Source: Microbotryum violaceum (Eukaryota). From it: 64,000 nt of DNA. The first letter of the stretch is position 1. Every line of letters starts with the position of its first letter. The notes under the pieces were generated by a model. That model saw nothing but the letters and a program-made list of their open reading frames with translations, did not search any database and was not told the DNA's origin. The DNA is taken from NCBI GenBank assembly GCA_001244265.2, contig CDLV01000008.1, positions 2,108,001 through 2,172,000 of the forward strand, written 5' to 3'. The position numbers and the translations under genes are program-made. Shown in pieces: positions 1 to 27,200 of this stretch.

Positions 1-1386
1 GGTCGAACAGGGACCGACGTGGGTTCGTCGGGTCGCCACGAGCTGGGTCCGGCGTGAAGAGCGACTGTGCGTGCCGTGAAGCAATACCCAGCGCCTCCTG
101 CATGTCAACGGTCTCGGTGCCATCCACATCCTCCAGCGAGACGATGCTCGTCTGGCGACTCCGGCGGTTGAGACGCGTGCGAATGCTTGCCGATTGACCT
201 TCCCTCGAGTCGACTGACGGCACATGCGCACGAATGCGCAGCCACTGAGCCTCCTTTACCGCCAACTGGTCCAACCGCGACTTGGCAAAAGCATACGCAT
301 CGCGCTCGGCCTCATTCATGTGCTCACCGCGTGCCTCCAAAGCCTCCATGACGGATTGGCTCTCGGACCGCAGTCGGCGCATGTCGGCACGAGTCGAGCG
401 GTATCGTGCATGGCCAGCGACTGCAACCGCCCGCAGAGCGGCGTCATAGACGTCGCCGAGCGGAGCGGTCCCCTCGAGCCTTCGATAGACCTCGTCGACG
501 ACCCCGGGAATCGATGCGACAAAGTCTTGATCGTCAAAGACCGTTGGGTTGAGCCTCGAAATGAAATCGCTCGTAGAGGGAAGAGAAAGGGGGGTTCGGC
601 ATCAGCGTTCGACGTAGGCAATGCGAAAGTCGCAACTACAGGTCTGTGGTCCGAACAGGGCGCGTCGAAGAGCGTAGAAGCGCTCAACAACCGGTTTGCC
701 CAACTGCATTGGACAAGAATATAGTCGATCCGCGACCACGAGCAAATCTTTCGCTCCTCCCCTCTACCACGGTAGTGAGGACGAGTGAATGCGGGGGTGC
801 AAGAATGGACATGTCGGACCGTGTCGAGTGCCTTGAACGCGATCTTTGACAGCAAAGTCTGCCAGTGCGATACAGGAGTCCAAGCGCGATCGGTGATGGA
901 CACTCGGTCGACCGATACATCCGGACAATCATTGAGATCGCCGGCCAAGATCCGAAGAGTCTTGGGTCTCGGGGCGTTGAAATGCAGGAGCCCGAAAAAG
1001 TCGCGACGATCGTCCTCCTGTACCGGCGCGTACATGTTGATGATCTCAACATCGAGCTCCTCAAGACGAAACACCGAGCGCAGAATCCGACCGTCGAAAC
1101 GAGGAGCTCCTGCAAAGACGACCGGGGTAGAGGAAAGGAGATGGCCCGCCAAAGGTGAGCCATCGGGTATGAGGGTAAGGACATGAGGAGTGAAACGAAT
1201 ACAAGCCCCTGGCCAAGCACTCTCGAAGCCTTCGCGCGACGCGTTGTAGCTGAGGTGGTGCTCTTGCAGGAGAATGGCCGCAGGGGCCGGCCGAAGGGTT
1301 TTGAGATAGCGGATGATTTTGACTTGGTTGACTGCGTTCTTGATCGATCGGACGTTGAACGTCAACACGGTGAGAGACTCAATCAT
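1..1386 (-). CDS. LINE B ORF2 N-terminus: AP-like endonuclease (partial, frameshift near 590)
   Basis: APE motifs TFNVRS, LLQEHH, NMYAP, GDLND, SRIDY, SDHRPV. Confidence 0.9.
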
Positions 1387-3060
1387 GAATAAATTGGATC
1401 AGCGCCGCCCCCTCGAATTCGGTCATCTCGGACCTGTGACCCCCTGAGCCGTCACCCCCTGATGCACCGAGGATCATGGCGGATCCCGCCCGGGTGACAC
1501 GTCGGTTGCCGGGTGCCGAGCTCGAACGAAGGCGTCGAGGACTCGTCGAGGCTATCGAGGTCGTCGAGGTTGCCGATGATTCCGACGTGCCACCGGACAA
1601 AGGCGATGCCGGAGCAGAAGCAGAAGGCGAAGGAGAGGTCGGGGTCGAAACGGGCGCCGCTGTCGTCGTCTGCGTCTCCTTTGTTGGGCCCGTGGTCGCA
1701 CGGGTCAACGTCTCTTTCCCAGTGTCGCCGCCCTCCGGTTCGGTCGAAGCGACCGATTCGCCGTCGTCGTCGTCGTCGTCACTGTCGCCGTCGTTCGCAT
1801 CGTCCTTGTTGCCGGTCGCTGCACCTGCGGGGTTAGCACGAGGTCCCAGCTGGATCATGTTCGTGCCAGAGGCACGAGAGTTCAATGCGGCGGGCCCACC
1901 GTGCTTCCCATTCTTTCCAGCAACTCGGAAGCCGGTGGTCGAAGTCGAAGTCGAAGTCGAGGCCCCCGGAACAGGGGCGGCGGTGGCCGGAGTCGAAACC
2001 GGCTTCCTGCAAGCCCCCCACTGGTGTCCAGCGCGATCGCACACGGCGCAGTAGTGCGTCTCAAATTCGTGTCGCAAGCCGTACTTGGCGCCCAGGATCT
2101 CGATCTCTTGTGGCAAGGCGGCGTTGAGCGCAGCCTTCTGCGTCTCGGTGGAGCCTTGGAAAAGATCAGCATGTAAGCGAAGGTACGCGCAGTGGAACCC
2201 GTCTTCGGTCATGGCCATCGGGTCACCGTTCGGATCGACCGCGAGGCCCCGCTGTAATTGCATGAGGGTATACCCTTGCGTGAAACCAGCGTGGCCAAAG
2301 GAGGAAGTGAGAGCATCTTCGAGAGATTTTCGGAGCACGGAAGCGGGAATCGCGCTGGAAGAGGAGGGTAAGGTGAATCGCACCTGGACGATGTGGTTTA
2401 GGGGGAAACACTCGGGAGCTCGGTGACCATCTCTTTTCCGTGATAGGGGAATGGACCCGCTGCAGCGGCTTCGAGACAGGCCTGGTCGGATTCGAACACG
2501 AGCTCGTACATATGACGAGCAATCGGGAACCTCTTTGTTGCCTTCGTCACGATCGTGTTCAGCTTCACACATTTCGAGAAGAGCTTCTCGACCTCGGGGT
2601 CAAGCTCGGCGCCCTCGGGCCGCGCGAACATGAATGGCGTCTCGGCCAGCCCAAAGTGCTTACGCAGCGCAATCTGTACAGGGCCTCTTGGGGACCCAGT
2701 ACCATCCATGATGACTCGGATCACGTTGGAGGCCGGCATCGCGTTGTTTCGTACCGCCCTTTGAGCAGCTCGTGCGAGAGCCGGCGCCTGCGAAGGCGGG
2801 CTGGAAGGGTCATACAACAGTACCATCAGCCGGCGGGTCGACTTGGAGGATGGTACGATGCCAAGGGCTTTGAAAGCCTTCTGCATCGACTTCTCATGGT
2901 CCAATCGAGCCCGAGAAGCCTGGGCAGACCAGGCTGGAGGATTAACGGTTCCTCCAGTGACCGTCTCACGGGTTTCCGTGTTGAGTGATTCATCTCTCAA
3001 CACGTCACCAGCCCACGGAGCGTTGGGCGGGTGCGGGGGTGGGCCGGGCGGATCCGGCAT
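1379..3060 (-). CDS. LINE B ORF1 (gag-like, zinc knuckle; frameshift near 2400)
   Basis: CAVCDRAGHQWGAC knuckle and acidic/Ser-Thr-rich tail; stop overlaps the ORF2 ATG. Confidence 0.85.
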
Positions 3061-3116
3061 CACTTCTTGTAGTCGTGCTGTAGCTCTTGAAGCGGTTGGT
3101 AGGCGACTGTACACGA

Positions 3117-4718
3117 TTTTTTTTTTTTTTTGACTGGGGCTCATAAATTGCAATCCTTCGGGTTGGCTGGGACCGCTACAAAAAGAGCTAAAGGAGGTTA
3201 TAAAGCAACGACGGCAAGCAGTTGGGTGAAAGTCAAACCCCTGCGCGCAAAGAGCGCTGCGCAGATCAAAACCCGCCGAGCACCTAACGCGGACTCCAAC
3301 GGGCGGTGAGTACTGCTGCCGCTTCACGTCCCAAGCGCGGGAGCGAAGATACTCGAAAACCAAGCAAGAGCGCCTAGAGAAAGAAGGGGGAGAGTATACG
3401 GAAAGTCACGACTGGGGATACGGAGAACCAGGAATACTAAGACAGAGAGGAGGGGAACACACCCGAGGGGCCAAGGTAGGGGGTCGAAGCCGGAGGTAGA
3501 GGTCCCCAGGGACTAACAGGCCGCAGCCAAGCCCCAGCTACTCGTCACCCCGACAGCGCCTGATGTCCTCCCTTGGCTGAATCTCGAGTGCTGGCTGTTG
3601 AGCCGTCGGGGCCGAGAGAAAAGCGATCCAGTACAACGAAACGAGCCTCGCGTTGACGGGAGGATATTGACCAGAAACGAGCGACCTTCCTTCCGAGCCA
3701 TGCCGTAGATCTTGACCAACGCGAACGAACGAACCATTCAACGGAATCCAACACACGGCTTAGGAGTAAAAGGAGAAGTGGCTGAAGCGTAGTCAACAAT
3801 TGAGCAACAGGAACGAGAAGAGGAAGGGAAGGGAAAAAGGGGGGAAAGGAGAGGGAAAAACTTCACAAAGCCTTCAACGCAAAGACAATCGACCTGGCTT
3901 GCCGATCCATCCAAGAACAAAAAACCGCTACTGCGCAAAGTAGAGAGAGAGAGGGAGAGGTGCGCAGCCTTCCACTGCGCAACAAGTTCCAAGACAGTCA
4001 GCTTCTAAAAGAGGAGTCGACCTCCGAAAAAGAAGGGAGGAAAGGAGGGGAGGAAAATGGGAAGGAAGGACTTAACTCGGTCATCACACCTCCCAATCTC
4101 GAGCCCCAGGCACAAAACCCGCTCGAGAGAGAAAATCTCGCTCGAACGCTCTGAGTGCACTGGGGAGCGAGGGAGGGGCCACGACCTTGTCCAGCTCGAA
4201 CCGCTGATGAACGCGCCAGCGGAGCAGGTGCAGCCGCTGGAAGCCGATCGCGCAAGCCAGCCGAACCCACATCCATTTCGAGGTCGTTCTCCCACGACCC
4301 CGCAAAAGGGGGAGCCCCATAGTCAGCTGCTCCGGAGTGAACGTCGACGGATCGACGTCGGTATCCTCGATGCCCAGCTTGTCGAACAGAATGCGAAGCA
4401 CCCCACCCCAGAAGCTGGTCGAGTACGCGCACTCGAAGAAGTAGTGCGACACCGTCTCGATGACCGCTGCATCGTTGCCGCAGAACAGACACGTCGGCGA
4501 AGAGGCATGACCCTGAGTATGCTGCCTCTTGCGCGTCGGCGTCACGTCGTACATGAGCCGCCAGTGGGTGTCCTGCTCCACAGCAGACGCAAACCGGTCA
4601 TGAAGCCATCTCCAGAAGCGTTTCCTATCGCTCTGAGAAGTCCCATCACGGAAACGCTTGACACGATCCTCCCTCCCTGGGAACCGAACCACGTTCACAA
4701 GCCGACGAAGCTTGCGAA
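3117..4718 (-). mobile_element. LINE B, 5'-truncated copy (mirror of 20888-22488)
   Basis: C-terminal CxxC..HxFFxC domain, ~950 bp 3'UTR, poly(T) 3117-3131 on + strand. Confidence 0.93.
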
Positions 4719-5376
4719 TTTTTTTTTTTTGTAGAAAACGTTCATCATATTGCCCCCAGTTCCTGTTCCCCCTGTTTTGGCCTACGGAAAAACTAGATGG
4801 AAGACTACGATGATAACACAAACCGCCCGCAAAAGTGCGAGAAACGAGCCAAGTCCACCAATCCGAGATTCGGATTCAAATGCCCTAGCCAAGCGGTTGC
4901 TCCCCCCCGGAGACTAATGAGAGAGAGAAAGAGAGATGAAGAGAAAAAGAAAGAAAAGAAATGTACTAACGACAGAAGGCCCACCCCACAGCCACTTCCC
5001 ACTCGGTCGAGACGAAGACAAGAGCACGACTGCGCAACCACCACGACCCTCGACGCTCCAAGTCTCTGCTCAGTCACAACAAGACGCGGTGAAGGTCCCT
5101 CAAAACCTCCCCCATCGGCAGTCCCTGGCCCCTCAAAGCCGACTTTCTGCCTGTGTCCGCTGATCCCTCCCTTGACTCAGAACCCCGAAGCCGAAGAGCG
5201 CGAGCCACACCGAGTCGACGCCAAATCGCGAGATGGTCCATGATCCGCAACGATGAACCTGTAACAAATGAAAGATGAAAGCGATCTATTTAGTGTACAG
5301 TAGGAGAAAATGATGTCACGAGAATTTGGTGTGTGTGTGTGTGTAGTGGTGGTGGGGGGAAAGTCGAACCCAGCCT

Positions 5377-8300
5377 CTACTGCCCTCTCCTCCCCCAAGC
5401 TCCTCCCGCCCTCAGCTTCAACCTCTCCTCCAAGATGATCCTCCTCCTCCCAACACCCTCCATCCTCGTCCCCCACTTCTGCATCCCCCACCTCCCGCTG
5501 CTGATCATCTCCAAGACCAGCCCGGTGAATATTTCGATCGTCCTCCCCGCTCCTTCTTGATCGCGTAGACTGGCCTTGAGCTTCGGAAGTCCGAACATGC
5601 GTTGAACAGCCGTGTAATGCGTGTTGTCGATCGTGTCGAGCCCCAGTGCGTCGCAGAGCACGCTCCTTGCCGCTATCCAAACGTTCCCAGAGTCAACGCA
5701 GTCGAAAAAGTAGTGGTCGGTGTCGTCCACCGGCGCTTCGCAGACAAGGCACGCGGGAGAAGTGTCGTGATTCTGTTGGTGTTGCAGCTTGCGCGTCGGG
5801 GTGAAGCGGAGAATCAGCTTGAACCAAACTTCCCTCTCCCTCGCCGTCAGTGCCTTCGAGTTGACCGCCTTCCAAAAGCTCCTGAGGTCGTCCGGCTGCG
5901 GTGGTCCCTTGAGCCCGAGCGTGTTGGTAAAGGCCTTCGCGTTCAGGACCCGGCGGATGCGACGGATGGTGTACGGTCGAGCCATGTTCAGCAGCTTGTA
6001 CTGGCTCGCCTGCTGTGGAAGCACCGGGTCCGGAAGGCGCTGCTCCATTGCGAAGCGGGCCACGGGCTTGGGGAGAATCGCCTCGAGTGGTGCGCTGGTG
6101 CCGATCCGGGGAGGCACGTTGAGCCGTCCTGCCGCCACCGCCACCGCCAAGGGCGTGTTCTTGTGTCGATCGACAGTGAACCGGTACCAGGCCGCGATTG
6201 CCAGTCGCTGCGGGAGCCCGCGTCGATCGTACTCGCTGTTGTCGCCGAGCACATCCGCCGGCGGCGTCCAAAGGTGAAACCCCCCACCCGCATACAACTC
6301 GCGCCGGTAAAGATCCGCCACCTTCGGGTAGCCCTGGAGACGAAGGTAGTCAGGTATATGAACCGCGTCGATGGTCTGTCTCCCTCTGATGGGGGTGTGG
6401 AGGCTGCCGAGCAAGGTGGGAAGCGCGAGCAGGTTCGCGGTGGTCAAGGTCCTCGGGTTGACCTGCGCGTCTTGCTGTTTCGGAACCCCCAAAGCTGCTC
6501 GCCATCGGGGATGGAGGTCGCTGGGGATGGGAGTGGATGGATGTGGCCAGAGATCGGTGGCCAGGTCGAGGTCGGACTGAGCTCGCTGGAGTGCCGCGCG
6601 CGCAAGTCCTTGCCAGATCGCGCCCGAACCGCCGAGAAGAACGTCCCAGATCCGTGCCGCAACCGCGTCCACGACGTCCTGCATCCTGATCACCCCGAGT
6701 CCCCCTTGAGCTTGGCTGTGAACACGATATCTCTGCCGTAGCTGGTCCTGCCCTTGCCCCCACGGACGAAATCGACGAGCATGTCATCGAGCTTCTTGAC
6801 GACTTCGGGCGGCGGGATGTCGGCTGCAAGAAAGTGCAGGATCTTGGGGATGGCGTACCGATTGACGTAAAAGGCACGGGTGTGGTGTGTGAGCCAGCGA
6901 TGCTGAACCCCCTCCAGCGTCGCCTCGAGGCGTTCGATGAGATTCGCGTAGGCGAGTTCGGTGTCGCCGCTCGGGTCGAAGGGGAGGCCGATCCACTCGA
7001 GCGACTCGCCTGCGGCCTTGACGACGAGCGGGCGTTGCCCCGGGTCCCAGCGGCGTCCGATCGGTAGGACGACCGTCTTGTCCGTGTTGAGCCGGCCATT
7101 CGTTGCATGCCTCCAGTCGAGCGCCAGGTCATCGAGCAAGTTGAGTGACCCCAAGCCCGCGACGGCGACGACAACGTCATCGGCAAAAGCAAGCGATGTA
7201 ATGGCGCGGCTCTGTGGGTACGGATGAAGTGCAGGTATGGAGAGATTCAGCGCGATGTTTCGACGGTGTAGAGCATCCAGAAACGGCTGAAACACGATGT
7301 CCCAGACCGACGACGACGCCGGGTCCCCTTGGCCGAGCCCACACGTCAGTCGTACCGGCGCCGTCAAGAACCCATTGATGATGTAGCGGGCCGAGGTCGA
7401 GTCACCCGAGTAGAGCATCCTCAGCACGCGAAGAAAGGTGGCAGGAGCGCCCAGAGCGTCAAAGATGGCAAAAATCCAGTCATGCTCGACGAGGTCGTAG
7501 GCGGACGATTGGTCAAGAGATAAGAGTGCGGCCGCGGGGAACTCGGTCCTGCGCGCGCCAACTTCCTCGATCAGGAGACGAAGGTGTAGTGCAGCGTCAG
7601 CCGATCGGCGGTCCTTGACGAATCCGTGCTGCTGCGGCGGGAGGAGATCCGGTAGAATCTGGTTCAAGCGGGCGACATAGACCTTGGTAAAGATCTTGTA
7701 AGCGCACTCGCGCAGGGTGATCGGCCGGTACGACGAAAGTTCGGCGCGATCGGCATTCTTCTTGTGTCGCTTGAAGATGAGGCGCACGAGTCCTTGGCCC
7801 TGCTTGGGAGAGAGTGAGCCTCGCTCTATCATCGTGTTGTAGGCCTTGGTCAGCACCTTGGCCCACGCCTTGGGTGCGGTCTGGTAGAGTTCGTAGGGCA
7901 CGCCCGACGGTCCCGGCGATCGCCCCGGGTGCGTCGTCCCGATCGCGGCCACGACCTCGTCCTCGGTGATTGGTCGCTGGAGTAAGTCGATCTGCGATTC
8001 CGAGAGTCGGCGCAGAAAGAGAGGATCCGAGCGCGGGTCGTCGCAAGTCCGCGCCGCCCTGATCGGCGCGAGGAATTCGTCCCGAAGTCGGTCGACGCGG
8101 TCCGGGTCACGAGGCTCGATGCGGTAGAGGCGCTGGAAATGCGCCTGCGTGTGGTCAAGAGCGACATCAATGTCATGCGTTAGCTCTCCGTTGCTCAAGC
8201 GCAGTGCTGTGATCTTGGAGTCCGAGTTCCGCGCCGCGAGCTTGGCGTGGACCGGCCGCGACAGTCGTTCCTCGGAGGCGATCTCGGGTACGTGGGCTCG

Positions 8301-9394
8301 GATCCGGAGTAGGCGCGCGCGCTCCTCGACCGCCCGCTTGAGTTCCTCGGACGTCCTTGTCCATTCTGCCGTTTCCGCCTCCCCCCATTCCGGTATCGCC
8401 TCCAGATCCTGCACCCTCCCCACCAAATACTCCATCCGTTCCGTCCGCTCCCGATGCAGCCTCCTCGCCATCTCCCCACCCCTATCCCTGCACGCCTTCA
8501 GAATGACCTCGAGCTCCCCACCGGTTCCTCCCCGCTTGCCCCTTCCAACCATCCTTCCATCATCCGCTGGAATTCCACCGTCTTAAAGGTTGTGGTGTTG
8601 ATTCGATGTAGTTGGTTTGATGTGGTAGGTAGGCTGAGCTGTGGGAGGGTCGCATCAGGATCGTCTGAGAGAGCCAGCACAATCAAGACCGGTCGGTGAT
8701 CGGAAAGCTCCTTGGGATAGTCGTAGATCGTCGAGGCCTGATCGAGTCTTTTTTGGTGTGTCCGTTGCAGGAGAAAGTAGTCAAGCCGGGAGAAGGAGTT
8801 GGGTCGCTTGCGATTGGGATTAGGTCGAGTGAAGGATGGGGTGATGGGGTGTTTGTAGCGGATGCAGTCCGTGTAGGCCGAGTCGAGCTTGCCGATCAGG
8901 ATTGGCCAGTGGTGGCCGCGCCGACTTTGGTTCCGCCGATCGACTTCTGGGCGCGGGCAGTCGTTGAGATCACCGCCAAGGAGTCGGAGGTGGGATTTCT
9001 GTGTTTTGTGAAATAAGAGTTTGTCAAAGAATTTCGCTCGTTGCTTTGGGTCAACGGGCGCGTAAACGTTGTTGATTTCTAGAATTTTGATGTCGCCCCG
9101 CAGTCGAAAGGACGTGACGAGGAGCCGGCCGTCGAGTGCCGAGTGGGTGCGCAAGAGCTCGGCGTCGATCAGGGGGGAGTCAGCCGGAATTAGAGTCAGA
9201 CAATGTTGGTTGATGAAGAGCTTGCCCTCGTACTCGTCCTTGATGAGTTGCCAGAGGTGCGGTCTGATGAAGTGCTCTTGTATGAGAATGGCCGATGCTT
9301 TGAAAAGGGATAGGTAGTCGTAAATGTCACGTCGTTTCTCCGGGACCCCCATGCCCCTCCTCACGTTCCAGGTGATGATGGTGTGCTTAATCAT
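5377..9394 (-). CDS. LINE A ORF2: endonuclease + reverse transcriptase + C-terminal zinc finger (homopolymer frameshifts near 8515 and 6700)
   Basis: TWNVR, GDLND, SDHRPV; SPGPSG, YRPITL, QHGF, LGQGDP, AFADD; CLVC..HYFFDC. Confidence 0.92.
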
Positions 9395-11641
9395 TAATGG
9401 GTAGTTGAGGTCGAAGCGCTCTTGGCGGTGGTGACGTCCTCAAAGAGGGGAGGGCGGGCAGGACATCGTCCTCGGGCTCGTGGTCGGACCATCTTTTCTC
9501 CTCGGCTACCCCCTTTGCTTTCCCTCGGTCCACTTTCGTCACGCCAACCGGCATCGCCGCCGCCGCTGACATCGACCTCGTCACCCTCCGCCCCTCTGTT
9601 CCATCCTTGACAACGACGCGGCTCTTCCCTTTGATGATCACTCGCTTGGCGTCGGTCGGTTCGTCACTCGGGTCACTGAGGTCCGCCGCAGTCTGCGACC
9701 TCTTCATTACCGGCTTTTTGAACTTCGAAGCGGTCCCCCTGATATTGATGGAACGTATCTCACCGTCCTCATCCCACGTGGCAAAGTTGTGACGCACCAA
9801 AGGGGTTTCAGCGTCGAGCCTCCTCTCGATGCTTTGGTCCCGCTCGAGTCGTGCCTGCTCAACCCAGTTAGCTCTGATCCTGTCCCACTCCTCCCCCTCG
9901 CGAAGCGACTTGGCAAGAGTTTCGGGTGACAAAGGTGGGGTTGGTTCGTGGGGTGTCGATTCGCGGGAAGCGGTGGCGGCGGTTGCGGTTGCGTCGCTGT
10001 CGTCGTCATTGTCCAGCCTGTTCGTCTCCCCTAAGTCCGTCGCTTCCGCGTTCTCCGCTTTCGTCGCTCCCCCTGCCTCGTCCACATCGTCCACCTCCGT
10101 CGCCACCTCCCTTTCCTCCATCTCCGTCGCCACCTTGCCTTCTGTTTCGCCCCTTCCATCCGCCATCACCTCATCCTCATCAATCACCTCTCCATCGGAT
10201 CCTCCGCAGTCCTCTAAAACCGACTCGTCCTCGCTCTTAAGTATGATGGCCTCCGTTTTCACGGTCGCCTCTGATTCCATCTCCGAGTCCTCCGAGTCCT
10301 CGTCATCCGCCTTATCACCAGCGTCCTCCTCCCCCGATTCCTCTGGCCCCTGTCCGCTCTGGCCAGTTACCGCTTCCTCCTGTCCCTCCTCAACCTCGAG
10401 CCCGGCGAAGCGATTCTGTGATGCGATCCTGTTAACAACCGGCACAGGAATGGGGGCCTCGGCCTCCGCAATGTTGGTGTCGTTGGTGATGGTGTTCTTG
10501 TTGGCGTTGGTGTTGCCGTTGCCGTTGCCGTTGTGAGCCTCCTTTCGCTTGCTCTCCTGATCCAGTCCGCAGGTTCCCACGTGACCAACGAAGTGGCACC
10601 TACCGCAAGCCGCCTCCTTCTCATAGTCATGGCGAAGGGCGGTGACGGGATGCCTCGAGTGGGAAGGCCGATTCTCGAAGGTAGGATCTCTTTCAAGGTC
10701 GTGTTAGGGCGTTTGAACAGGGAGTCGTCATCGAAGTGTAGGAAAGCTGAGTAGTCTCCGGCAACGTGGGCAAAGGCCGAGGCGTTGTCCACGCTGATAA
10801 TGCGCAGAACCTGCACAAGTTGGCACGAATGTCCCTTGCCTGACAAGTCCTGCACTAGTAATTGGAACGATTTGATGATGGCATCCATGGAAGGCACTCC
10901 TTGAACACCGACGTTGATTCGAAGCTCGACCATGTTATGGTGGAACCTGTGAGATTTCGCGAAGCGGGCCTTCGCCGATCGCCAAGTGAGAGCAGGGGGC
11001 GTCGTAAGCGCAGCGTCACGTGCCTCGCCGGTGACGAACCCAACGGTAACGCGATGGTGAGCCGCCCCATTACGCAGGATTGATGAATGTTGTACGCCTA
11101 GGATCTGTGGTCGATAGGCTGCAAGGTGGTCCGGCAGAGGAACTCCAGGCTCAAAGCAGATAGGAGAGATCGGCGATAACAGCCTCGTGACGCAGGCCAC
11201 GAGATCGGTCTTGTCGGCATGAGACGCTCGCGAGGCGCTCTGGTGAGACAGAGTCACTTCAAGGGCGTAATCAAAGATGTTCTCGACAGACCGGTTCGCG
11301 TTCAAGGCCGAGAATTTCAGCGATGTGGCGGTGGCGACGGGGTAGAGTTCGGCGAAGTAGATGGCCTGGACCCAACGATCCATGCGGTTTCCGGGTACAG
11401 CACCCATGGCTTGTAGGAGGCTGCCCAGAGCCTTGGAACGCTGTTGTTGTTGTTGCTGTTGTTCAGGTGACTGAGTCGCCTGACTCGCAGCGGCGGCATA
11501 GTTGGGTGCGGCGGTGGCGGGGCCCGTGGCTTGCGTCTTCTTCGAGCTTATCGGGATCTGGTCGCGAGGTGGCTGGACGCTGGTGGCGGACACCGGTGGT
11601 GGCGGTGCCAGCGGTGGGGACCCAGGGTCTCCTGTAGACAT
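9387..11641 (-). CDS. LINE A ORF1 (zinc knuckle, acidic region; frameshift near 10645)
   Basis: Mirror of 13970-16223; [13 protein letters not shown] knuckle when frames are joined. Confidence 0.85.
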
Positions 11642-11796
11642 CTTGTCGGTGTATCACTTGTTAACTCGAGTATCGAAGACTGCGGTAGGGCGATTTCGAA
11701 GTGAAGTGAAGTGGGGTGTGAATTTTTTTTGTGTGAAAATTAGAGAAAAAAAAAGCGGGAAGCATTTGCCAAAGTGGAACCAGCCGGCGCCCCACC

Positions 11797-11913
11797 GCCG
11801 TCATAGCACAGTGGTAGTTGCGCCTGCCTAGTAATTCGAGTCCCCTATTTCATTAGGGATTATGTAATTAGTAGTTTAGCAGGAGGTCGAGAGTTCAAGC
11901 CTCTCTGATGGCA
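11797..11913 (+). tRNA. tRNA-Thr(AGT) with 44-nt intron (11834-11877)
   Basis: Acceptor GCCGTCA/TGATGGC+A; D arm TAGCACAGTGGTAGTTGCG; anticodon stem CCTGC/GCAGG with loop CT-AGT-A and intron at canonical 37/38; T arm GAGAG-TTCAAGC-CTCTC; followed by oligo(T). Confidence 0.93.
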
Positions 11914-11932
11914 TTTTTTTTGTCATTTTTTT
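11914..11932 (+). terminator. Pol III oligo(T) terminator of tRNA-Thr
   Basis: T8 immediately after the tRNA and a second T run; mirror A runs at 13679-13697. Confidence 0.8.
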
Positions 11933-12041
11933 GTTCGCGAAACATGCCTATCCATTCGGTTTCCCTCAACTAGAAATCCAAAACCCGTGCGGCGTAAGCT
12001 CAAAGCCCTCCCTCTGGGAGGCGCGAGGCGCTTAGGACTTA

Positions 12042-12244
<203 letters not shown>

Positions 12245-13248: not shown

Positions 13249-13365
13249 ATTGGATCACCAACCAGGTGGGTAACACTCCAGCATATCAGCTCAGTCTACA
13301 AGAACGCGGCAAGGCCTCTTGAACACTTGCAACCTACCTGTGCAGTCTGACTCAATCATTGTGAA

Positions 13366-13547
13366 AATAGCTTGCGCGCGCCTAGAACCTCCCTTGGCTT
13401 TCGCCAGCTCACTGACCCGAGGTTCTAGGTGGGTGCCCCTTTTCTCATATGTGTAGTATGCTAGCTCACTGACCCGAGGTTCTAGTGAATTACTATTGTT
13501 TGATCCTGTCTATCGTTCTGGAGCACCGCTGCACGCGGTGCTTCCAG
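13366..13547 (-). repeat. Repeat R, copy at inner end of right arm
   Basis: Reverse complement of 12064-12244. Confidence 0.85.
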
Positions 13548-13814: not shown

Positions 13815-13969
13815 GGTGGGGCGCCGGCTGGTTCCACTTTGGCAAATGCTTCCCGCTTTTTTTTTCTCTAATTTTCACACAAAAAAAATTCACACCCCAC
13901 TTCACTTCACTTCGAAATCGCCCTACCGCAGTCTTCGATACTCGAGTTAACAAGTGATACACCGACAAG

Positions 13970-16223: not shown

Positions 16224-19200
16224 GCACACCATCATCACCTGGAACGTGAGGAGGGGCATGGGGGTCCCGGAGAAACGACGTGACATTTACGACTACCTAT
16301 CCCTTTTCAAAGCATCGGCCATTCTCATACAAGAGCACTTCATCAGACCGCACCTCTGGCAACTCATCAAGGACGAGTACGAGGGCAAGCTCTTCATCAA
16401 CCAACATTGTCTGACTCTAATTCCGGCTGACTCCCCCCTGATCGACGCCGAGCTCTTGCGCACCCACTCGGCACTCGACGGCCGGCTCCTCGTCACGTCC
16501 TTTCGACTGCGGGGCGACATCAAAATTCTAGAAATCAACAACGTTTACGCGCCCGTTGACCCAAAGCAACGAGCGAAATTCTTTGACAAACTCTTATTTC
16601 ACAAAACACAGAAATCCCACCTCCGACTCCTTGGCGGTGATCTCAACGACTGCCCGCGCCCAGAAGTCGATCGGCGGAACCAAAGTCGGCGCGGCCACCA
16701 CTGGCCAATCCTGATCGGCAAGCTCGACTCGGCCTACACGGACTGCATCCGCTACAAACACCCCATCACCCCATCCTTCACTCGACCTAATCCCAATCGC
16801 AAGCGACCCAACTCCTTCTCCCGGCTTGACTACTTTCTCCTGCAACGGACACACCAAAAAAGACTCGATCAGGCCTCGACGATCTACGACTATCCCAAGG
16901 AGCTTTCCGATCACCGACCGGTCTTGATTGTGCTGGCTCTCTCAGACGATCCTGATGCGACCCTCCCACAGCTCAGCCTACCTACCACATCAAACCAACT
17001 ACATCGAATCAACACCACAACCTTTAAGACGGTGGAATTCCAGCGGATGATGGAAGGATGGTTGGAAGGGGCAAGCGGGGAGGAACCGGTGGGGAGCTCG
17101 AGGTCATTCTGAAGGCGTGCAGGGATAGGGGTGGGGAGATGGCGAGGAGGCTGCATCGGGAGCGGACGGAACGGATGGAGTATTTGGTGGGGAGGGTGCA
17201 GGATCTGGAGGCGATACCGGAATGGGGGGAGGCGGAAACGGCAGAATGGACAAGGACGTCCGAGGAACTCAAGCGGGCGGTCGAGGAGCGCGCGCGCCTA
17301 CTCCGGATCCGAGCCCACGTACCCGAGATCGCCTCCGAGGAACGACTGTCGCGGCCGGTCCACGCCAAGCTCGCGGCGCGGAACTCGGACTCCAAGATCA
17401 CAGCACTGCGCTTGAGCAACGGAGAGCTAACGCATGACATTGATGTCGCTCTTGACCACACGCAGGCGCATTTCCAGCGCCTCTACCGCATCGAGCCTCG
17501 TGACCCGGACCGCGTCGACCGACTTCGGGACGAATTCCTCGCGCCGATCAGGGCGGCGCGGACTTGCGACGACCCGCGCTCGGATCCTCTCTTTCTGCGC
17601 CGACTCTCGGAATCGCAGATCGACTTACTCCAGCGACCAATCACCGAGGACGAGGTCGTGGCCGCGATCGGGACGACGCACCCGGGGCGATCGCCGGGAC
17701 CGTCGGGCGTGCCCTACGAACTCTACCAGACCGCACCCAAGGCGTGGGCCAAGGTGCTGACCAAGGCCTACAACACGATGATAGAGCGAGGCTCACTCTC
17801 TCCCAAGCAGGGCCAAGGACTCGTGCGCCTCATCTTCAAGCGACACAAGAAGAATGCCGATCGCGCCGAACTTTCGTCGTACCGGCCGATCACCCTGCGC
17901 GAGTGCGCTTACAAGATCTTTACCAAGGTCTATGTCGCCCGCTTGAACCAGATTCTACCGGATCTCCTCCCGCCGCAGCAGCACGGATTCGTCAAGGACC
18001 GCCGATCGGCTGACGCTGCACTACACCTTCGTCTCCTGATCGAGGAAGTTGGCGCGCGCAGGACCGAGTTCCCCGCGGCCGCACTCTTATCTCTTGACCA
18101 ATCGTCCGCCTACGACCTCGTCGAGCATGACTGGATTTTTGCCATCTTTGACGCTCTGGGCGCTCCTGCCACCTTTCTTCGCGTGCTGAGGATGCTCTAC
18201 TCGGGTGACTCGACCTCGGCCCGCTACATCATCAATGGGTTCTTGACGGCGCCGGTACGACTGACGTGTGGGCTCGGCCAAGGGGACCCGGCGTCGTCGT
18301 CGGTCTGGGACATCGTGTTTCAGCCGTTTCTGGATGCTCTACACCGTCGAAACATCGCGCTGAATCTCTCCATACCTGCACTTCATCCGTACCCACAGAG
18401 CCGCGCCATTACATCGCTTGCTTTTGCCGATGACGTTGTCGTCGCCGTCGCGGGCTTGGGGTCACTCAACTTGCTCGATGACCTGGCGCTCGACTGGAGG
18501 CATGCAACGAATGGCCGGCTCAACACGGACAAGACGGTCGTCCTACCGATCGGACGCCGCTGGGACCCGGGGCAACGCCCGCTCGTCGTCAAGGCCGCAG
18601 GCGAGTCGCTCGAGTGGATCGGCCTCCCCTTCGACCCGAGCGGCGACACCGAACTCGCCTACGCGAATCTCATCGAACGCCTCGAGGCGACGCTGGAGGG
18701 GTTCAGCATCGCTGGCTCACACACCACACCCGTGCCTTTTACGTCAATCGGTACGCCATCCCCAAGATCCTGCACTTTCTTGCAGCCGACATCCCGCCGC
18801 CCGAAGTCGTCAAGAAGCTCGATGACATGCTCGTCGATTTCGTCCGTGGGGGCAAGGGCAGGACCAGCTACGGCAGAGATATCGTGTTCACAGCCAAGCT
18901 CAAGGGGGACTCGGGGTGATCAGGATGCAGGACGTCGTGGACGCGGTTGCGGCACGGATCTGGGACGTTCTTCTCGGCGGTTCGGGCGCGATCTGGCAAG
19001 GACTTGCGCGCGCGGCACTCCAGCGAGCTCAGTCCGACCTCGACCTGGCCACCGATCTCTGGCCACATCCATCCACTCCCATCCCCAGCGACCTCCATCC
19101 CCGATGGCGAGCAGCTTTGGGGGTTCCGAAACAGCAAGACGCGCAGGTCAACCCGAGGACCTTGACCACCGCGAACCTGCTCGCGCTTCCCACCTTGCTC

Positions 19201-20229
19201 GGCAGCCTCCACACCCCCATCAGAGGGAGACAGACCATCGACGCGGTTCATATACCTGACTACCTTCGTCTCCAGGGCTACCCGAAGGTGGCGGATCTTT
19301 ACCGGCGCGAGTTGTATGCGGGTGGGGGTTTCACCTTTGGACGCCGCCGGCGGATGTGCTCGGCGACAACAGCGAGTACGATCGACGCGGGCTCCCGCAG
19401 CGACTGGCAATCGCGGCCTGGTACCGGTTCACTGTCGATCGACACAAGAACACGCCCTTGGCGGTGGCGGTGGCGGCAGGACGGCTCAACGTGCCTCCCC
19501 GGATCGGCACCAGCGCACCACTCGAGGCGATTCTCCCCAAGCCCGTGGCCCGCTTCGCAATGGAGCAGCGCCTTCCGGACCCGGTGCTTCCACAGCAGGC
19601 GAGCCAGTACAAGCTGCTGAACATGGCTCGACCGTACACCATCCGTCGCATCCGCCGGGTCCTGAACGCGAAGGCCTTTACCAACACGCTCGGGCTCAAG
19701 GGACCACCGCAGCCGGACGACCTCAGGAGCTTTTGGAAGGCGGTCAACTCGAAGGCACTGACGGCGAGGGAGAGGGAAGTTTGGTTCAAGCTGATTCTCC
19801 GCTTCACCCCGACGCGCAAGCTGCAACACCAACAGAATCACGACACTTCTCCGCGTGCCTTGTCTGCGAAGCGCCGGTGGACGACACCGACCACTACTTT
19901 TTCGACTGCGTTGACTCTGGGAACGTTTGGATAGCGGCAAGGAGCGTGCTCTGCGACGCACTGGGGCTCGACACGATCGACAACACGCATTACACGGCTG
20001 TTCAACGCATGTTCGGACTTCCGAAGCTCAAGGCCAGTCTACGCGATCAAGAAGGAGCGGGGAGGACGATCGAAATATTCACCGGGCTGGTCTTGGAGAT
20101 GATCAGCAGCGGGAGGTGGGGGATGCAGAAGTGGGGACGAGGATGGAGGGTGTTGGGAGGAGGAGGATCATCTTGGAGGAGAGGTTGAAGCTGAGGGCGG
20201 GAGGAGCTTGGGGGAGGAGAGGGCAGTAG
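16216..20229 (+). CDS. LINE A ORF2: APE endonuclease, reverse transcriptase, C-terminal zinc finger (several single-base frameshifts)
   Basis: APE and RT motifs in successive ORFs 16216-17112, 17058-, 18614-, 18916-, 19356-, ending 20229. Confidence 0.92.
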
Positions 20230-20887
20230 AGGCTGGGTTCGACTTTCCCCCCACCACCACTACACACACACACACACCAAATTCTCGTGACATCATTTTC
20301 TCCTACTGTACACTAAATAGATCGCTTTCATCTTTCATTTGTTACAGGTTCATCGTTGCGGATCATGGACCATCTCGCGATTTGGCGTCGACTCGGTGTG
20401 GCTCGCGCTCTTCGGCTTCGGGGTTCTGAGTCAAGGGAGGGATCAGCGGACACAGGCAGAAAGTCGGCTTTGAGGGGCCAGGGACTGCCGATGGGGGAGG
20501 TTTTGAGGGACCTTCACCGCGTCTTGTTGTGACTGAGCAGAGACTTGGAGCGTCGAGGGTCGTGGTGGTTGCGCAGTCGTGCTCTTGTCTTCGTCTCGAC
20601 CGAGTGGGAAGTGGCTGTGGGGTGGGCCTTCTGTCGTTAGTACATTTCTTTTCTTTCTTTTTCTCTTCATCTCTCTTTCTCTCTCTCATTAGTCTCCGGG
20701 GGGGAGCAACCGCTTGGCTAGGGCATTTGAATCCGAATCTCGGATTGGTGGACTTGGCTCGTTTCTCGCACTTTTGCGGGCGGTTTGTGTTATCATCGTA
20801 GTCTTCCATCTAGTTTTTCCGTAGGCCAAAACAGGGGGAACAGGAACTGGGGGCAATATGATGAACGTTTTCTACAAAAAAAAAAAA

Positions 20888-22488
20888 TTCGCAAGCTTCG
20901 TCGGCTTGTGAACGTGGTTCGGTTCCCAGGGAGGGAGGATCGTGTCAAGCGTTTCCGTGATGGGACTTCTCAGAGCGATAGGAAACGCTTCTGGAGATGG
21001 CTTCATGACCGGTTTGCGTCTGCTGTGGAGCAGGACACCCACTGGCGGCTCATGTACGACGTGACGCCGACGCGCAAGAGGCAGCATACTCAGGGTCATG
21101 CCTCTTCGCCGACGTGTCTGTTCTGCGGCAACGATGCAGCGGTCATCGAGACGGTGTCGCACTACTTCTTCGAGTGCGCGTACTCGACCAGCTTCTGGGG
21201 TGGGGTGCTTCGCATTCTGTTCGACAAGCTGGGCATCGAGGATACCGACGTCGATCCGTCGACGTTCACTCCGGAGCAGCTGACTATGGGGCTCCCCCTT
21301 TTGCGGGTCGTGGGAGAACGACCTCGAAATGGATGTGGGTTCGGCTGGCTTGCGCGATCGGCTTCCAGCGGCTGCACCTGCTCCGCTGGCGCGTTCATCA
21401 GCGGTTCGAGCTGGACAAGGTCGTGGCCCCTCCCTCGCTCCCCAGTGCACTCAGAGCGTTCGAGCGAGATTTTCTCTCTCGAGCGGGTTTTGTGCCTGGG
21501 GCTCGAGATTGGGAGGTGTGATGACCGAGTTAAGTCCTTCCTTCCCATTTTCCTCCCCTCCTTTCCTCCCTTCTTTTTCGGAGGTCGACTCCTCTTTTAG
21601 AAGCTGACTGTCTTGGAACTTGTTGCGCAGTGGAAGGCTGCGCACCTCTCCCTCTCTCTCTCTACTTTGCGCAGTAGCGGTTTTTTGTTCTTGGATGGAT
21701 CGGCAAGCCAGGTCGATTGTCTTTGCGTTGAAGGCTTTGTGAAGTTTTTCCCTCTCCTTTCCCCCCTTTTTCCCTTCCCTTCCTCTTCTCGTTCCTGTTG
21801 CTCAATTGTTGACTACGCTTCAGCCACTTCTCCTTTTACTCCTAAGCCGTGTGTTGGATTCCGTTGAATGGTTCGTTCGTTCGCGTTGGTCAAGATCTAC
21901 GGCATGGCTCGGAAGGAAGGTCGCTCGTTTCTGGTCAATATCCTCCCGTCAACGCGAGGCTCGTTTCGTTGTACTGGATCGCTTTTCTCTCGGCCCCGAC
22001 GGCTCAACAGCCAGCACTCGAGATTCAGCCAAGGGAGGACATCAGGCGCTGTCGGGGTGACGAGTAGCTGGGGCTTGGCTGCGGCCTGTTAGTCCCTGGG
22101 GACCTCTACCTCCGGCTTCGACCCCCTACCTTGGCCCCTCGGGTGTGTTCCCCTCCTCTCTGTCTTAGTATTCCTGGTTCTCCGTATCCCCAGTCGTGAC
22201 TTTCCGTATACTCTCCCCCTTCTTTCTCTAGGCGCTCTTGCTTGGTTTTCGAGTATCTTCGCTCCCGCGCTTGGGACGTGAAGCGGCAGCAGTACTCACC
22301 GCCCGTTGGAGTCCGCGTTAGGTGCTCGGCGGGTTTTGATCTGCGCAGCGCTCTTTGCGCGCAGGGGTTTGACTTTCACCCAACTGCTTGCCGTCGTTGC
22401 TTTATAACCTCCTTTAGCTCTTTTTGTAGCGGTCCCAGCCAACCCGAAGGATTGCAATTTATGAGCCCCAGTCAAAAAAAAAAAAAAA
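20888..22488 (+). mobile_element. LINE B, 5'-truncated copy (1.6 kb)
   Basis: Starts at the equivalent of 27584 of the full B copy, directly after the A12 tail of LINE A; ends in A15. Confidence 0.93.
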
Positions 22489-22544
22489 TCGTGTACAGTC
22501 GCCTACCAACCGCTTCAAGAGCTACAGCACGACTACAAGAAGTG

Positions 22545-24226
22545 ATGCCGGATCCGCCCGGCCCACCCCCGCACCCGCCCAACGCTCCGTGGGCTGGTGA
22601 CGTGTTGAGAGATGAATCACTCAACACGGAAACCCGTGAGACGGTCACTGGAGGAACCGTTAATCCTCCAGCCTGGTCTGCCCAGGCTTCTCGGGCTCGA
22701 TTGGACCATGAGAAGTCGATGCAGAAGGCTTTCAAAGCCCTTGGCATCGTACCATCCTCCAAGTCGACCCGCCGGCTGATGGTACTGTTGTATGACCCTT
22801 CCAGCCCGCCTTCGCAGGCGCCGGCTCTCGCACGAGCTGCTCAAAGGGCGGTACGAAACAACGCGATGCCGGCCTCCAACGTGATCCGAGTCATCATGGA
22901 TGGTACTGGGTCCCCAAGAGGCCCTGTACAGATTGCGCTGCGTAAGCACTTTGGGCTGGCCGAGACGCCATTCATGTTCGCGCGGCCCGAGGGCGCCGAG
23001 CTTGACCCCGAGGTCGAGAAGCTCTTCTCGAAATGTGTGAAGCTGAACACGATCGTGACGAAGGCAACAAAGAGGTTCCCGATTGCTCGTCATATGTACG
23101 AGCTCGTGTTCGAATCCGACCAGGCCTGTCTCGAAGCCGCTGCAGCGGGTCCATTCCCCTATCACGGAAAAGAGATGGTCACCGAGCTCCCGAGTGTTTC
23201 CCCCCTAAACCACATCGTCCAGGTGCGATTCACCTTACCCTCCTCTTCCAGCGCGATTCCCGCTTCCGTGCTCCGAAAATCTCTCGAAGATGCTCTCACT
23301 TCCTCCTTTGGCCACGCTGGTTTCACGCAAGGGTATACCCTCATGCAATTACAGCGGGGCCTCGCGGTCGATCCGAACGGTGACCCGATGGCCATGACCG
23401 AAGACGGGTTCCACTGCGCGTACCTTCGCTTACATGCTGATCTTTTCCAAGGCTCCACCGAGACGCAGAAGGCTGCGCTCAACGCCGCCTTGCCACAAGA
23501 GATCGAGATCCTGGGCGCCAAGTACGGCTTGCGACACGAATTTGAGACGCACTACTGCGCCGTGTGCGATCGCGCTGGACACCAGTGGGGGCTTGCAGGA
23601 AGCCGGTTTCGACTCCGGCCACCGCCGCCCCTGTTCCGGGGGCCTCGACTTCGACTTCGACTTCGACCACCGGCTTCCGAGTTGCTGGAAAGAATGGGAA
23701 GCACGGTGGGCCCGCCGCATTGAACTCTCGTGCCTCTGGCACGAACATGATCCAGCTGGGACCTCGTGCTAACCCCGCAGGTGCAGCGACCGGCAACAAG
23801 GACGATGCGAACGACGGCGACAGTGACGACGACGACGACGACGGCGAATCGGTCGCTTCGACCGAACCGGAGGGCGGCGACACTGGGAAAGAGACGTTGA
23901 CCCGTGCGACCACGGGCCCAACAAAGGAGACGCAGACGACGACAGCGGCGCCCGTTTCGACCCCGACCTCTCCTTCGCCTTCTGCTTCTGCTCCGGCATC
24001 GCCTTTGTCCGGTGGCACGTCGGAATCATCGGCAACCTCGACGACCTCGATAGCCTCGACGAGTCCTCGACGCCTTCGTTCGAGCTCGGCACCCGGCAAC
24101 CGACGTGTCACCCGGGCGGAATCCGCCATGATCCTCGGTGCATCAGGGGGTGACGGCTCAGGGGGTCACAGGTCCGAGATGACCGAATTCGAGGGGGCGG
24201 CGCTGATCCAATTTATTCATGATTGA
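22545..24226 (+). CDS. LINE B ORF1 (frameshift in G run near 23590)
   Basis: MPDPPGPPP start, CAVCDRAGHQWGAC knuckle, ends ...FIHD*. Confidence 0.86.
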
Positions 24227-27200
24227 GTCTCTCACCGTGTTGACGTTCAACGTCCGATCGATCAAGAACGCAGTCAACCAAGTCAAAATCATCCGCTATC
24301 TCAAAACCCTTCGGCCGGCCCCTGCGGCCATTCTCCTGCAAGAGCACCACCTCAGCTACAACGCGTCGCGCGAAGGCTTCGAGAGTGCTTGGCCAGGGGC
24401 TTGTATTCGTTTCACTCCTCATGTCCTTACCCTCATACCCGATGGCTCACCTTTGGCGGGCCATCTCCTTTCCTCTACCCCGGTCGTCTTTGCAGGAGCT
24501 CCTCGTTTCGACGGTCGGATTCTGCGCTCGGTGTTTCGTCTTGAGGAGCTCGATGTTGAGATCATCAACATGTACGCGCCGGTACAGGAGGACGATCGTC
24601 GCGACTTTTTCGGGCTCCTGCATTTCAACGCCCCGAGACCCAAGACTCTTCGGATCTTGGCCGGCGATCTCAATGATTGTCCGGATGTATCGGTCGACCG
24701 AGTGTCCATCACCGATCGCGCTTGGACTCCTGTATCGCACTGGCAGACTTTGCTGTCAAAGATCGCGTTCAAGGCACTCGACACGGTCCGACATGTCCAT
24801 TCTTGCACCCCCGCATTCACTCGTCCTCACTACCGTGGTAGAGGGGAGGAGCGAAAGATTTGCTCGTGGTCGCGGATCGACTATATTCTTGTCCAATGCA
24901 GTTGGGCAAACCGGTTGTTGAGCGCTTCTACGCTCTTCGACGCGCCCTGTTCGGACCACAGACCTGTAGTTGCGACTTTCGCATTGCCTACGTCGAACGC
25001 TGATGCCGAACCCCCCTTTCTCTTCCCTCTACGAGCGATTTCATTTCGAGGCTCAACCCAACGGTCTTTGACGATCAAGACTTTGTCGCATCGATTCCCG
25101 GGGTCGTCGACGAGGTCTATCGAAGGCTCGAGGGGACCGCTCCGCTCGGCGACGTCTATGACGCCGCTCTGCGGGCGGTTGCAGTCGCTGGCCATGCACG
25201 ATACCGCTCGACTCGTGCCGACATGCGCCGACTGCGGTCCGAGAGCCAATCCGTCATGGAGGCTTTGGAGGCACGCGGTGAGCACATGAATGAGGCCGAG
25301 CGCGATGCGTATGCTTTTGCCAAGTCGCGGTTGGACCAGTTGGCGGTAAAGGAGGCTCAGTGGCTGCGCATTCGTGCGCATGTGCCGTCAGTCGACTCGA
25401 GGGAAGGTCAATCGGCAAGCATTCGCACGCGTCTCAACCGCCGGAGTCGCCAGACGAGCATCGTCTCGCTGGAGGATGTGGATGGCACCGAGACCGTTGA
25501 CATGCAGGAGGCGCTGGGTATTGCTTCACGGCACGCACAGTCGCTCTTCACGCCGGACCCAGCTCGTGGCGACCCGACGAACCCACGTCGGTCCCTGTTC
25601 GACCCTATTCGCGCGGCGAAATGCTACGATGACGACCGCTCGGACCCTACGTTCGGTCGTCGGCTGCCTCGTCAAGCGAGAGTGGCGCTTGACGAGCCCT
25701 TCACCCTCCTCGAGGTTGAAGCGGCGTTGAAGAAGACGGATTCGGGGCGATCACCGGGGCCCTCGGGCATTCCGTACGAGCTCTTCAAGGCGCTGCCAAC
25801 CTACTTTGGTCCCAAGCTGTTGGATTTGTTCAACTCGATTTGGGAGGGGGTAAAATGACGGCGTCCTTGGCAGAGGGGCTGGTGCGGCTTTTGCCCAAGA
25901 ACAAACCGGGGGCCAATCTGAAATCACTGGGGGCATATCGACCGATCACACTGCGCGAGACAACCTACAAGGTCCTCAGCAAGGTCTTGGTGGCGCGACT
26001 CAATGGGGTGCTCGGCGAGCTTTTGCCGCCGGCGCAACACGGGTTCATGCCATCAAGACGTTCAGCGGACGCGGGAAGTCATCTCACTCTCCTTCTCGAA
26101 AAACTCCGATCACTCGGTACTGATGTTTTCCCAGAGGGCGCCCTCTTGTCCTTGGATCAGCAGAGCGCGTACGATCGGGTCGATCACGCATGGATCTTCG
26201 ACGTCTTCGAGGCCTTTGGCTTTGGTGAGCGTTTCATTTCCCTGCTGCGCGCTCTGTACGATCCCGAGACTCTGGGGGTGCGCTACCTCATCAATAGGTT
26301 CCCCACGGAGTTGGTGCGGTTGCTGTGTGGTCTCGGTCAGGGGAATCCCCTCTCGTGCCCGGTTTGGAACATCACGTTCCAGCCCTTCCTCGACGCCCTC
26401 GTTCGGCGCGGGATCGCGCTCGACCTGCAGAAGGTGTGGCCAGGGGGGCCACGTGCGCAGCTTACGCATCTGGCGTTTGCCGACGATGCTGTGGTGGTGG
26501 TGGAGTCACCGGCGGCATTGTCGAAGCTGGAAACGCTGTCGCAGACGTGGTACGAGGCAACCAACGGGAAGACCAACACGGACAAGACGCTGGTGCTACC
26601 ACTCGGACCGAACTGGCTTCGGGACGAGACTGCGCAGGCGCTGCCAACGGTGCAGGAGGGGGAGAGCTTCAAGTGGTGCGGCTATGCCTTCTTTCGCCAC
26701 GGTGACTCGAAACTGTTTTGGACCCATGTTCTTGACAGGATCAAAGCCAAGACCCGCGCCGCTGGAGACCGGACACTTTCGCCGAGTGGGAAGGTCTTCT
26801 ATGCCAACGCTCACATCATCTCGACGGTCCTCCACGTGCTGTCCTTCGACATACCGCCTCAATGGTTCATTAAGGCGGCGGAGACAGCACTTACGGATTT
26901 TGTTTGGGGAGGAGCAGGGCGAAATACCGTCGCTCGCGATTTCGTGTTCCAGGCTCGGGAGGACGGTGGCTTGGGCTTGATTTTAATCGGCGACATCGTT
27001 CATTCGGTGGCGCTTCGATTTTGGGATGCTGTGGCGGGCTCGAACGAGGCGATCTGGGCGCCCCTAGCTCGCGAGAGCTGGAGGTCCCTCGTCGCTGCGA
27101 CCCGCGATTTCAGTCCGTGGGGGTTCTTCAGCAGCACGGCTCGGGTCGAGAAGCTGTATCGCGACTCGACGCGCTGGGGGGCAGTCGTTGCAGCGGCCAG

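Follow-up and report, generated by a model that had tools for sequence, protein, structure and literature searches.

Introduction

Inverted-repeat centromeres are known from Candida tropicalis, and in Schizosaccharomyces pombe transfer RNA (tRNA) genes lie near the centromere core. A 64,000-nucleotide stretch of the anther-smut fungus Microbotryum violaceum (GenBank assembly GCA_001244265.2, contig CDLV01000008.1, positions 2,108,001 to 2,172,000; the whole stretch is called the window hereafter) recalls this outline: two tRNA genes converge on a short core, inside the arms of a giant palindrome of long interspersed nuclear elements (LINEs). An earlier note on this DNA had hesitated between a centromere whose arms are homogenised and a very recent inverted duplication, with the caveat of an assembly artefact.

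Four described systems come closest. The centromeres of Komagataella phaffii, one per chromosome, consist of 2-kb arms around a 1-kb core bound by CenH3 (PMC5010909; here and below papers are cited for the accessible parts of their text). The putative centromeres of Microbotryum are defined by centromeric repeats in tandem, which form a single block on each contig (PMC5962589; 10.1101/2021.10.29.466223). The inverted duplications of Hermetz et al. 2014 (PMC3907307) have spacers of 766-70,466 bp and microhomology of 2-8 bases. Finally, TRE5-A/B/C and NLTR-B of dictyostelid amoebae are tRNA-targeted, at a distance of 40-54 bp (PMC5911963), and in the accessible text of the same paper tRNA-targeted elements without long terminal repeats (LTRs) are listed from these amoebae only.

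We propose that the palindrome is the likely product of a recent inverted duplication with deletion at a tRNA-docked LINE stack, by break repair or template switching, and that it has no centromere role. It is thus probably a fresh instance of a known rearrangement, recent and real, which duplicates only transposons and one tRNA gene. The stronger result concerns the LINEs rather than the palindrome: a fungal L1-like family very likely targets tRNA genes as TRE5 does, a habit well supported in its geometry.

Structure of the palindrome

The window is G000:C6:2108001-2172000 in a 33.2-Mb, 20-contig assembly, and 80 kb of upstream sequence was added for the arm limits (negative positions lie upstream of the window). 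Self-alignment of the window only gives an inverted match of 1-12244 with 13366-25604 (99.9%, 1 mismatch, 11 gaps). Essentially identical arms of at least 12.2 kb, as the earlier note had claimed, are therefore borne out and are even larger, 14.1 kb; the arm end formerly placed at 25604 is merely the point where the window edge cuts the left arm. With the flanks included, the near-identical arms extend from -1896 (G000:C6:2106104) to 12244 on the left, and from 13366 to 27501 on the right. Over the 14,141 bp of their alignment they differ by 1 substitution and 13 one-base gaps, around a spacer of 1121 bp; the identity is uniform along the 14 kb and its edge is sharp.

Nearly all the one-base gaps fall within G/C runs. 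At 8/10 indel sites tested the letters of the shorter arm recur in fewer other LINE copies than those of the longer arm, or in none, the remaining two being a tie and a site without match among other copies. Besides, the extra base of the right arm at 12072 is present in X1 and X5, two of the four sequencing runs, out of 23 listed, that were compared (X1, X5, X9 and X17; what they give is contig depth, not copy number). Because of this mismatch of the shorter arm to other copies and of the base in X1 and X5, the indels look like consensus errors and the arms are effectively identical.

The spacer (12245..13365, GC 52%) is single-copy as an assembled unit, but genome matches reveal a mosaic of nested dispersed repeats: a genome search returned 71 matches, and 1121/1121 of its bases are matched in other fetched loci. 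The earlier description of two tRNA genes facing a unique spacer of 1121 bp thus holds for the convergent pair and for the length, not for the uniqueness. Nor do the tRNA genes bound the spacer, since each lies about 330 bp inside its own arm. Comparison with other copies identifies a dispersed element, X, whose hairpin-bearing end lies at 11990..12064 and which continues at 12307-12819 and 13249-13366. It is interrupted by solo LTR Y (12065..12306, 242 bp, TG...CA, 5-bp duplication TTGCC) and by an older, inverted Y-related LTR (12815..13248, 83% to Y), itself containing solo LTR Z (about 13009-13210, TG...CA, 5-bp duplication CTATC).

The two arms do not enter this nest in the same way. The left one (1..12244 in the window, continuing to -1896) passes into the spacer through the intact LTR Y with its target-site duplication. 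On the right, Y is cut at its position 180 (13366-13546) and X ends at 13366, where other X copies go on differently for more than 1.3 kb; both are thus cut at 13365/13366 and the ancestral sequence is truncated. At the new inner joint (13360..13370) the cut X meets solo LTR Y in its middle; the exact microhomology is an overlap of 1 base, and TGAA is common to both sides two bases out of register. Because the LTR is whole on the left while LTR and X are cut on the right, the left arm would be the donor and the right arm (13366..27501) its inverted copy.

Relatives of LTR Y occur elsewhere. In full-element copies (L106, L109, L111, L112) one side of Y is an A run identical among copies, placed where a primer-binding site would fall on the other strand. 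A degenerate Y-related LTR (75-84%) lies at 58844-59019 of the window, with inverted pairs at 57517-58243.

The outer joint (27495..27510) lies within open reading frame 2 (ORF2) of a LINE that we call LINE B. Arm identity ends there and the two sides go on as two LINE B 3' subfamilies, B1 and B2, both of them present in many copies in the genome. Past -1896 and 27501 the two sides are in-register LINE B, about 81% alike over the last 1.5 kb, so that inverted LINE homology extends 1.7 kb past the arms on both sides. The LINE B bodies of the two arms differ by 1 substitution in the first 4.8 kb, against 1-44 per 400 bp for five other copies. Because the arm bodies are near-identical and the subfamily then changes, the copy thus seems to end by a switch into a pre-existing, oppositely pointing LINE B.

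The homology beyond the arms shows that inverted homology predates the event, which is what would be expected if the tRNA locus had long stood there as an inverted pair and recurrent gene conversion, rather than one recent duplication, had kept its two halves alike. We find this very improbable: the outer parts fall into two subfamilies found across the genome, the distal stacks have different contents, the identity stays even along the 14 kb up to a sharp edge, and the inner joint truncates a young LTR having 99% copies, so that the joint is late. A very recent inverted duplication, the other option of the earlier note, is supported by the anatomy of both junctions, i.e. the truncated X and LTR Y on one side and the LINE B subfamily switch on the other.

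tRNA genes and LINE stacks

The left tRNA gene is a tRNA-Thr(AGT) with a 44-nt intron (11797..11913, + strand; Rfam, and ARAGORN with introns), 83 bp from the 5' end of the LINE called LINE A. Its duplicate (13698..13814, - strand; Rfam) belongs to the other arm, and gene plus flank are found at 2 places only, the two arms. The pair scores 46.6 bits in Rfam (E 8.9e-07). With default settings ARAGORN gives 0 tRNAs in the window, because the genes contain introns. Rfam matches to a hepatitis C virus stem-loop (E 0.4) were rejected as chance.

From the tRNA outward, the left stack begins with a full-length LINE A (4720..11713, - strand) comprising ORF1 and ORF2, an endonuclease, a reverse transcriptase and a 5' (CACTT)n; it is 100% identical to a copy on contig C12 and points away from the tRNA. 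Its right-arm copy occupies 13898..20886 (+ strand; self-alignment, Pfam). Then comes a 5'-truncated LINE B 3' fragment with a zf-RVT domain and an A tail (3117..4719, - strand; mirror copy 20887-22488, + strand), and beyond it, by sequence comparison, the LINE B crossed by the outer joint. The left copy of the latter (1..3116, continuing to -3578, - strand) has a B2-type 3' end, whereas the right copy (22489..29185, + strand) owes its first 5 kb to the left arm and carries a B1-type 3' end over its last 1.7 kb. Further right, the rest of a separate, right-pointing head-to-tail LINE stack (29189..33289, + strand) contains 3' fragments with A tails and a 3.5-kb LINE A piece at 94%; the distal parts of the two stacks differ in content. 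ORF2 is of L1 type, with endonuclease PF03372, reverse transcriptase PF00078 and a C-terminal zinc finger PF13966. Along the left stack the best-match identity drops outward from the tRNA (100, 99, 97-98, 91-94%), a trend that fits the insertion of new copies next to the tRNA and the outward displacement of old ones. By eye, no target-site duplication ties the far end of either stack to the tRNA-Thr flank.

This arrangement is found genome-wide. Of 950 candidates in a genome search with Rfam, 63 were scored and 49 came out as tRNA matches, and 40 loci were examined; the nine omitted are the two in the window, three already LINE-adjacent and the four lowest-scoring. LINE sequence lies at most 250 bp upstream of the tRNA at 32/40 loci, pointing away in every case, against 1/40 at most 250 bp downstream (Fisher p 1.9e-13); L043 and L044, both among the 32, are one duplicated event. 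At 20/40 loci a LINE is found within 100 bp upstream, and the nearest detected LINE base is at 15-214 bp. The 8 LINE-negative loci include two members of a repeated tRNA-like unit and three AT-rich matches with no upstream LINE (L047, L066, L069; GC 0.34-0.37), which from their composition look mitochondrial. Starting from the LINEs instead, and with the ARAGORN threshold relaxed, 12/30 LINE A 5' ends are head to head with a tRNA (two of them are the arms), 11 abut a LINE tail and 7 are unclassified; for LINE B the respective numbers are 3/30, 15 and 12. The LINE A-tRNA junction is also present in runs X17 and X9.

Insertion into older A tails, in the manner of Zorro3, was considered as the sole cause of the stacks and rejected: it predicts no fixed distance to the tRNA and the youngest copy outermost, and the data show the reverse. 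Such insertions may add to the stacks.

The likeness with the TRE5 elements of Dictyostelium is thus one of geometry, upstream of tRNA genes. The differences are several: the host is here a basidiomycete, the distances are wider and longer (15-214 bp vs 40-54 bp), the 5' repeats are the microsatellites (CACTT)n and (CA)n, and the stacks are deep and of several families. Of the 71 homologues listed, none is named as a dictyostelid protein, and the named close homologues are from Microbotryomycetes. At 32/40 tRNA loci, a basidiomycete case would be a likely independent origin of tRNA targeting, and how a LINE finds genes transcribed by RNA polymerase III (Pol III) becomes testable in a culturable fungus. 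We found no report of tRNA-targeting LINEs for fungi in the open-access literature, including the accessible parts of PMC5006619 and PMC10886601, while subscription papers, Repbase and preprint supplements may describe them. In the accessible text of the Microbotryum transposon preprint the word "tRNA" is absent, and in that of PMC10886601 Helenus elements are not reported in Microbotryum. A metagenome scan for LINE relatives returned one locus, 2661 bp without a 5' end, and an Atlas search with ORF1 returned weak zinc-knuckle leads only, all below 0.9.

Three observations accompany these elements. The 5' microsatellites, (CACTT)n in LINE A and (CA)n in LINE B, are of variable length (L115-L174). 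A third LINE family has a CATAC-A tail. The repeated tRNA-like unit mentioned above occurs with a shared upstream flank at many places, often with a LINE upstream (L023, L065, L068, L072, L075, L079, L133, L135); it may be part of a mobile element serving as a landing site.

Genuine rearrangement or assembly artefact

The artefact caveat was a fair one. On that account fold-back chimeric long reads would have made the inner joint and the assembler would have left the repeat via LINE B similarity, the true locus being two separate LINE stacks with unassembled DNA between them. We consider this unlikely; the caveat is reduced by the synteny of the flanks and by the depth in run X17, and is not settled by them.

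Concerning synteny, the orthologues of the LAA1-like gene on the left and of the REG1-like gene on the right are BQ2448_7230 and BQ2448_7222 in M. intermedium, 8 gene numbers apart and both on contigs of 1,002,499 bp; in M. saponariae both orthologues are on Chr11. As both flank orthologues stay close, the assembly exits the repeat into its syntenic right neighbour, out of at least 27 places with LINE B that were scored.

Comparing the depth of arms and spacer, as the earlier note had advised, gives a divided answer. In run X17 the arm contig has a depth of 327.7 and the spacer contig of 220.6, both without differences, a ratio of 1.49 which favours duplication and fits one rearranged and one intact allele. 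In run X1 the values are 123.1 and 126.1, a ratio of 0.98 which does not favour it and suggests a run without the duplication. The latter ratio also points toward a strain lacking the right-hand tRNA-Thr, one more argument against long-lasting gene conversion. An inflation of the X17 depth by paralogous tRNA-Thr is unlikely, given the 2 places of gene and flank. Zero depth of X1 at 13270-13329, and of X1, X5 and X9 at 13390-13440, was not used as evidence. The first 40 kb of C1 and C2, the two largest contigs, match at nearly equal coordinates. This would be expected of an assembly holding both mating-type chromosomes, and bears on the 1.5 ratio.

Several points weigh against a genuine duplication. 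A clonal haploid duplication expects a ratio of 2, so that the value seen requires a sample that is mixed or heterozygous; the depth of a contig does not give copy number, and X17 is possibly the source sample. None of the 32 contig pieces listed, beyond which there are 686 more, bridges the new joint, and the contigs of three of the four runs (X1, X5, X9) pass 12244 unbroken. At 13366, loose ends with the letters of X in unrearranged form are seen in X1 and X17; their source may be other copies of X or an intact allele. The differences between the arms are almost all homopolymer errors. Finally, many near-perfect palindromes in one long-read assembly could be a shared artefact, and one of those described below stands at a contig break.

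On the other hand, a missed-adapter chimera turns symmetrically, whereas the joint is asymmetric with a spacer of 1121 bp. The palindrome at the start of C6 occurs in two contigs. Added to the exit into the syntenic flank and to the contrast between 1.49 and 0.98, these points lead us to prefer a genuine duplication.

Proposed mechanism of the duplication

The duplication can be pictured as follows. L1-like LINEs would insert in fixed orientation about 50-130 bp upstream of tRNA genes, and repeated insertion would build head-to-tail stacks pointing away from the tRNA, youngest nearest. What the loci display is geometry alone; the elements might be tethered to the Pol III machinery through TFIIIB/C, as TRE5-A is, and the three AT-rich, mitochondrial-looking matches that lack an upstream LINE would be an indirect hint at this. 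The locus would first have held two stacks pointing opposite ways. A recent break or fork collapse would then have taken out what lay between element X and the LINE B on the right, possibly favoured—this is speculation—by the inverted 83% LTR pair at the spacer. Repair would have copied 14.1 kb of the left side inverted, i.e. LINE stack, tRNA-Thr and part of the solo LTR, with the outer joint made by LINE B homology and the inner one by 1-base end-joining.

One-sided invasion is a known repair route, and two paths may be considered. Either the right end invaded the left LINE B, with 14 kb of synthesis followed by end-joining, or the left end folded back at the spacer edge and was resolved in LINE B. 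The assembly itself shows which arm is donor and which is copy, an inner joint that is nearly blunt, an outer joint in homologous sequence and the loss of the rest of X, and from these we infer the repair path. The convergence of the tRNA genes would be a by-product: it follows from the docking of the LINE stack on the upstream side of a tRNA, since an inverted duplication of such a unit pairs the tRNAs. The second tRNA gene, which would have seeded the right stack, was not found, and this also counts against the scheme; it was probably lost.

Compared with the inverted duplications of Hermetz et al., the palindrome shares a short unduplicated spacer (1121 bp is in their range), the loss of sequence beyond the spacer and a joint inside repeats. 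It differs by the inner overlap, 1 base against their 2-8, and by the content, as no host gene is duplicated here. Its far end, moreover, is healed in local LINE homology with syntenic flanks, and no terminal deletion or translocation is involved.

Other young palindromes

Four more young palindromes were met without a full scan of the genome, so that the counts are a minimum: one each on C8 and C15, and two more on C6, which makes three on this contig. The C8 palindrome (G000:C8:1003559-1012478; L086, L087) has 3443-bp arms with 0 substitutions and 3 gaps around a 2037-bp spacer. It carries two diverging tRNAs (anticodon read CTT, Lys); a LINE fragment lies 83 bp upstream of each, and one of the palindrome's inner joints cuts solo LTR Z. 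Those on C15 (G000:C15:213670-225896; 5931-bp arms, 358-bp spacer) and at 1.93 Mb on C6 (C6:1931752-1941391; 4631-bp arms, 378-bp spacer) consist of transposon sequence with abrupt outer joints. The last, a LINE palindrome of about 4.5 kb with a 98-bp spacer, lies at the start of C6 (G000:C6:1-9854) and equally at C19:173576-183399; the contig ends overlap at 98.7%, and C19 and C6 are probably one chromosome. The palindrome of the window is thus one of several young kilobase-scale palindromes that the genome seems to tolerate.

The centromere hypothesis

A functional centromere with homogenised arms around a core and with tRNA boundaries, as the earlier note had envisaged, is not supported, and we give it hardly any credence. 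Its appeal lies in the shape and the core size, like those of Komagataella, and in the stretch of about 45 kb (roughly -5200 to 39,700) without a recognised host gene. An arm-core-arm outline with a core of about 1 kb is indeed present, with 14.1-kb arms and a 1121-bp spacer. However, the arms are seven times longer than in K. phaffii and made of young LINEs. The core is not specific to the locus: it is a nest of transposons, fully repetitive, in which nested LTRs keep their target duplications and which is severed by the new joint. Contig C6 bears at least 3 palindromes of this kind, which therefore excludes one per chromosome. In contrast to inverted-repeat centromeres, the palindrome is apparently absent from at least one other isolate, no duplication being seen in run X1 by contig depth.

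The putative centromeres of Microbotryum resemble the locus in being gene-poor and repeat-rich, but no such array was found here: in 184 kb there is no tandem array longer than about 300 bp, and Tandem Repeats Finder (TRF) gives 17 short arrays, the longest of about 270 bp, a search of tandem structure only and not of the published repeats. The flank orthologues, 8 gene numbers apart in M. intermedium, and the genome-wide adjacency of tRNA and LINE speak in the same direction. Besides, about 140 kb away from the locus the contig ends in sequence common to many contig ends, among them both those of C3. This shared sequence served to judge the ends of contigs because a search for the telomere-repeat pattern found none, though simple repeats may be skipped by it.

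The centromere reading was therefore dropped: the core is repetitive, the palindromes are several, there is no long tandem array, the flanks are syntenic and the tRNAs are explained as docking sites. The locus is rather a warning that an arm-core-arm shape with tRNA genes is no mark of a centromere. As a long shot, arm-core-arm structures might arise from tRNA-docked LINE stacks at neighbouring converging tRNAs that repeatedly template repair, and a newborn one could recruit CENP-A; if this were true, inverted-repeat centromeres with tRNA boundaries could originate from a tRNA-targeting retrotransposon.

Other features of the window

The absence of any host protein gene over 38 kb, noticed earlier, is confirmed: among 35 long ORFs (Pfam), all family matches up to 38170 are to retroelements. 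The gene-free stretch also contains a copia LTR retrotransposon, outside the palindrome (33319..38170, - strand; self-alignment, Pfam). In 4-kb bins, no signature like that of repeat-induced point mutation (RIP), nor an AT-rich one, was seen. The best matches of the LINE and host proteins are Microbotryum proteins (81-99%). Just left of the LINE stack lie two tandem paralogous host ORFs, with 68% DNA identity over 500 bp (L011:197-4795).

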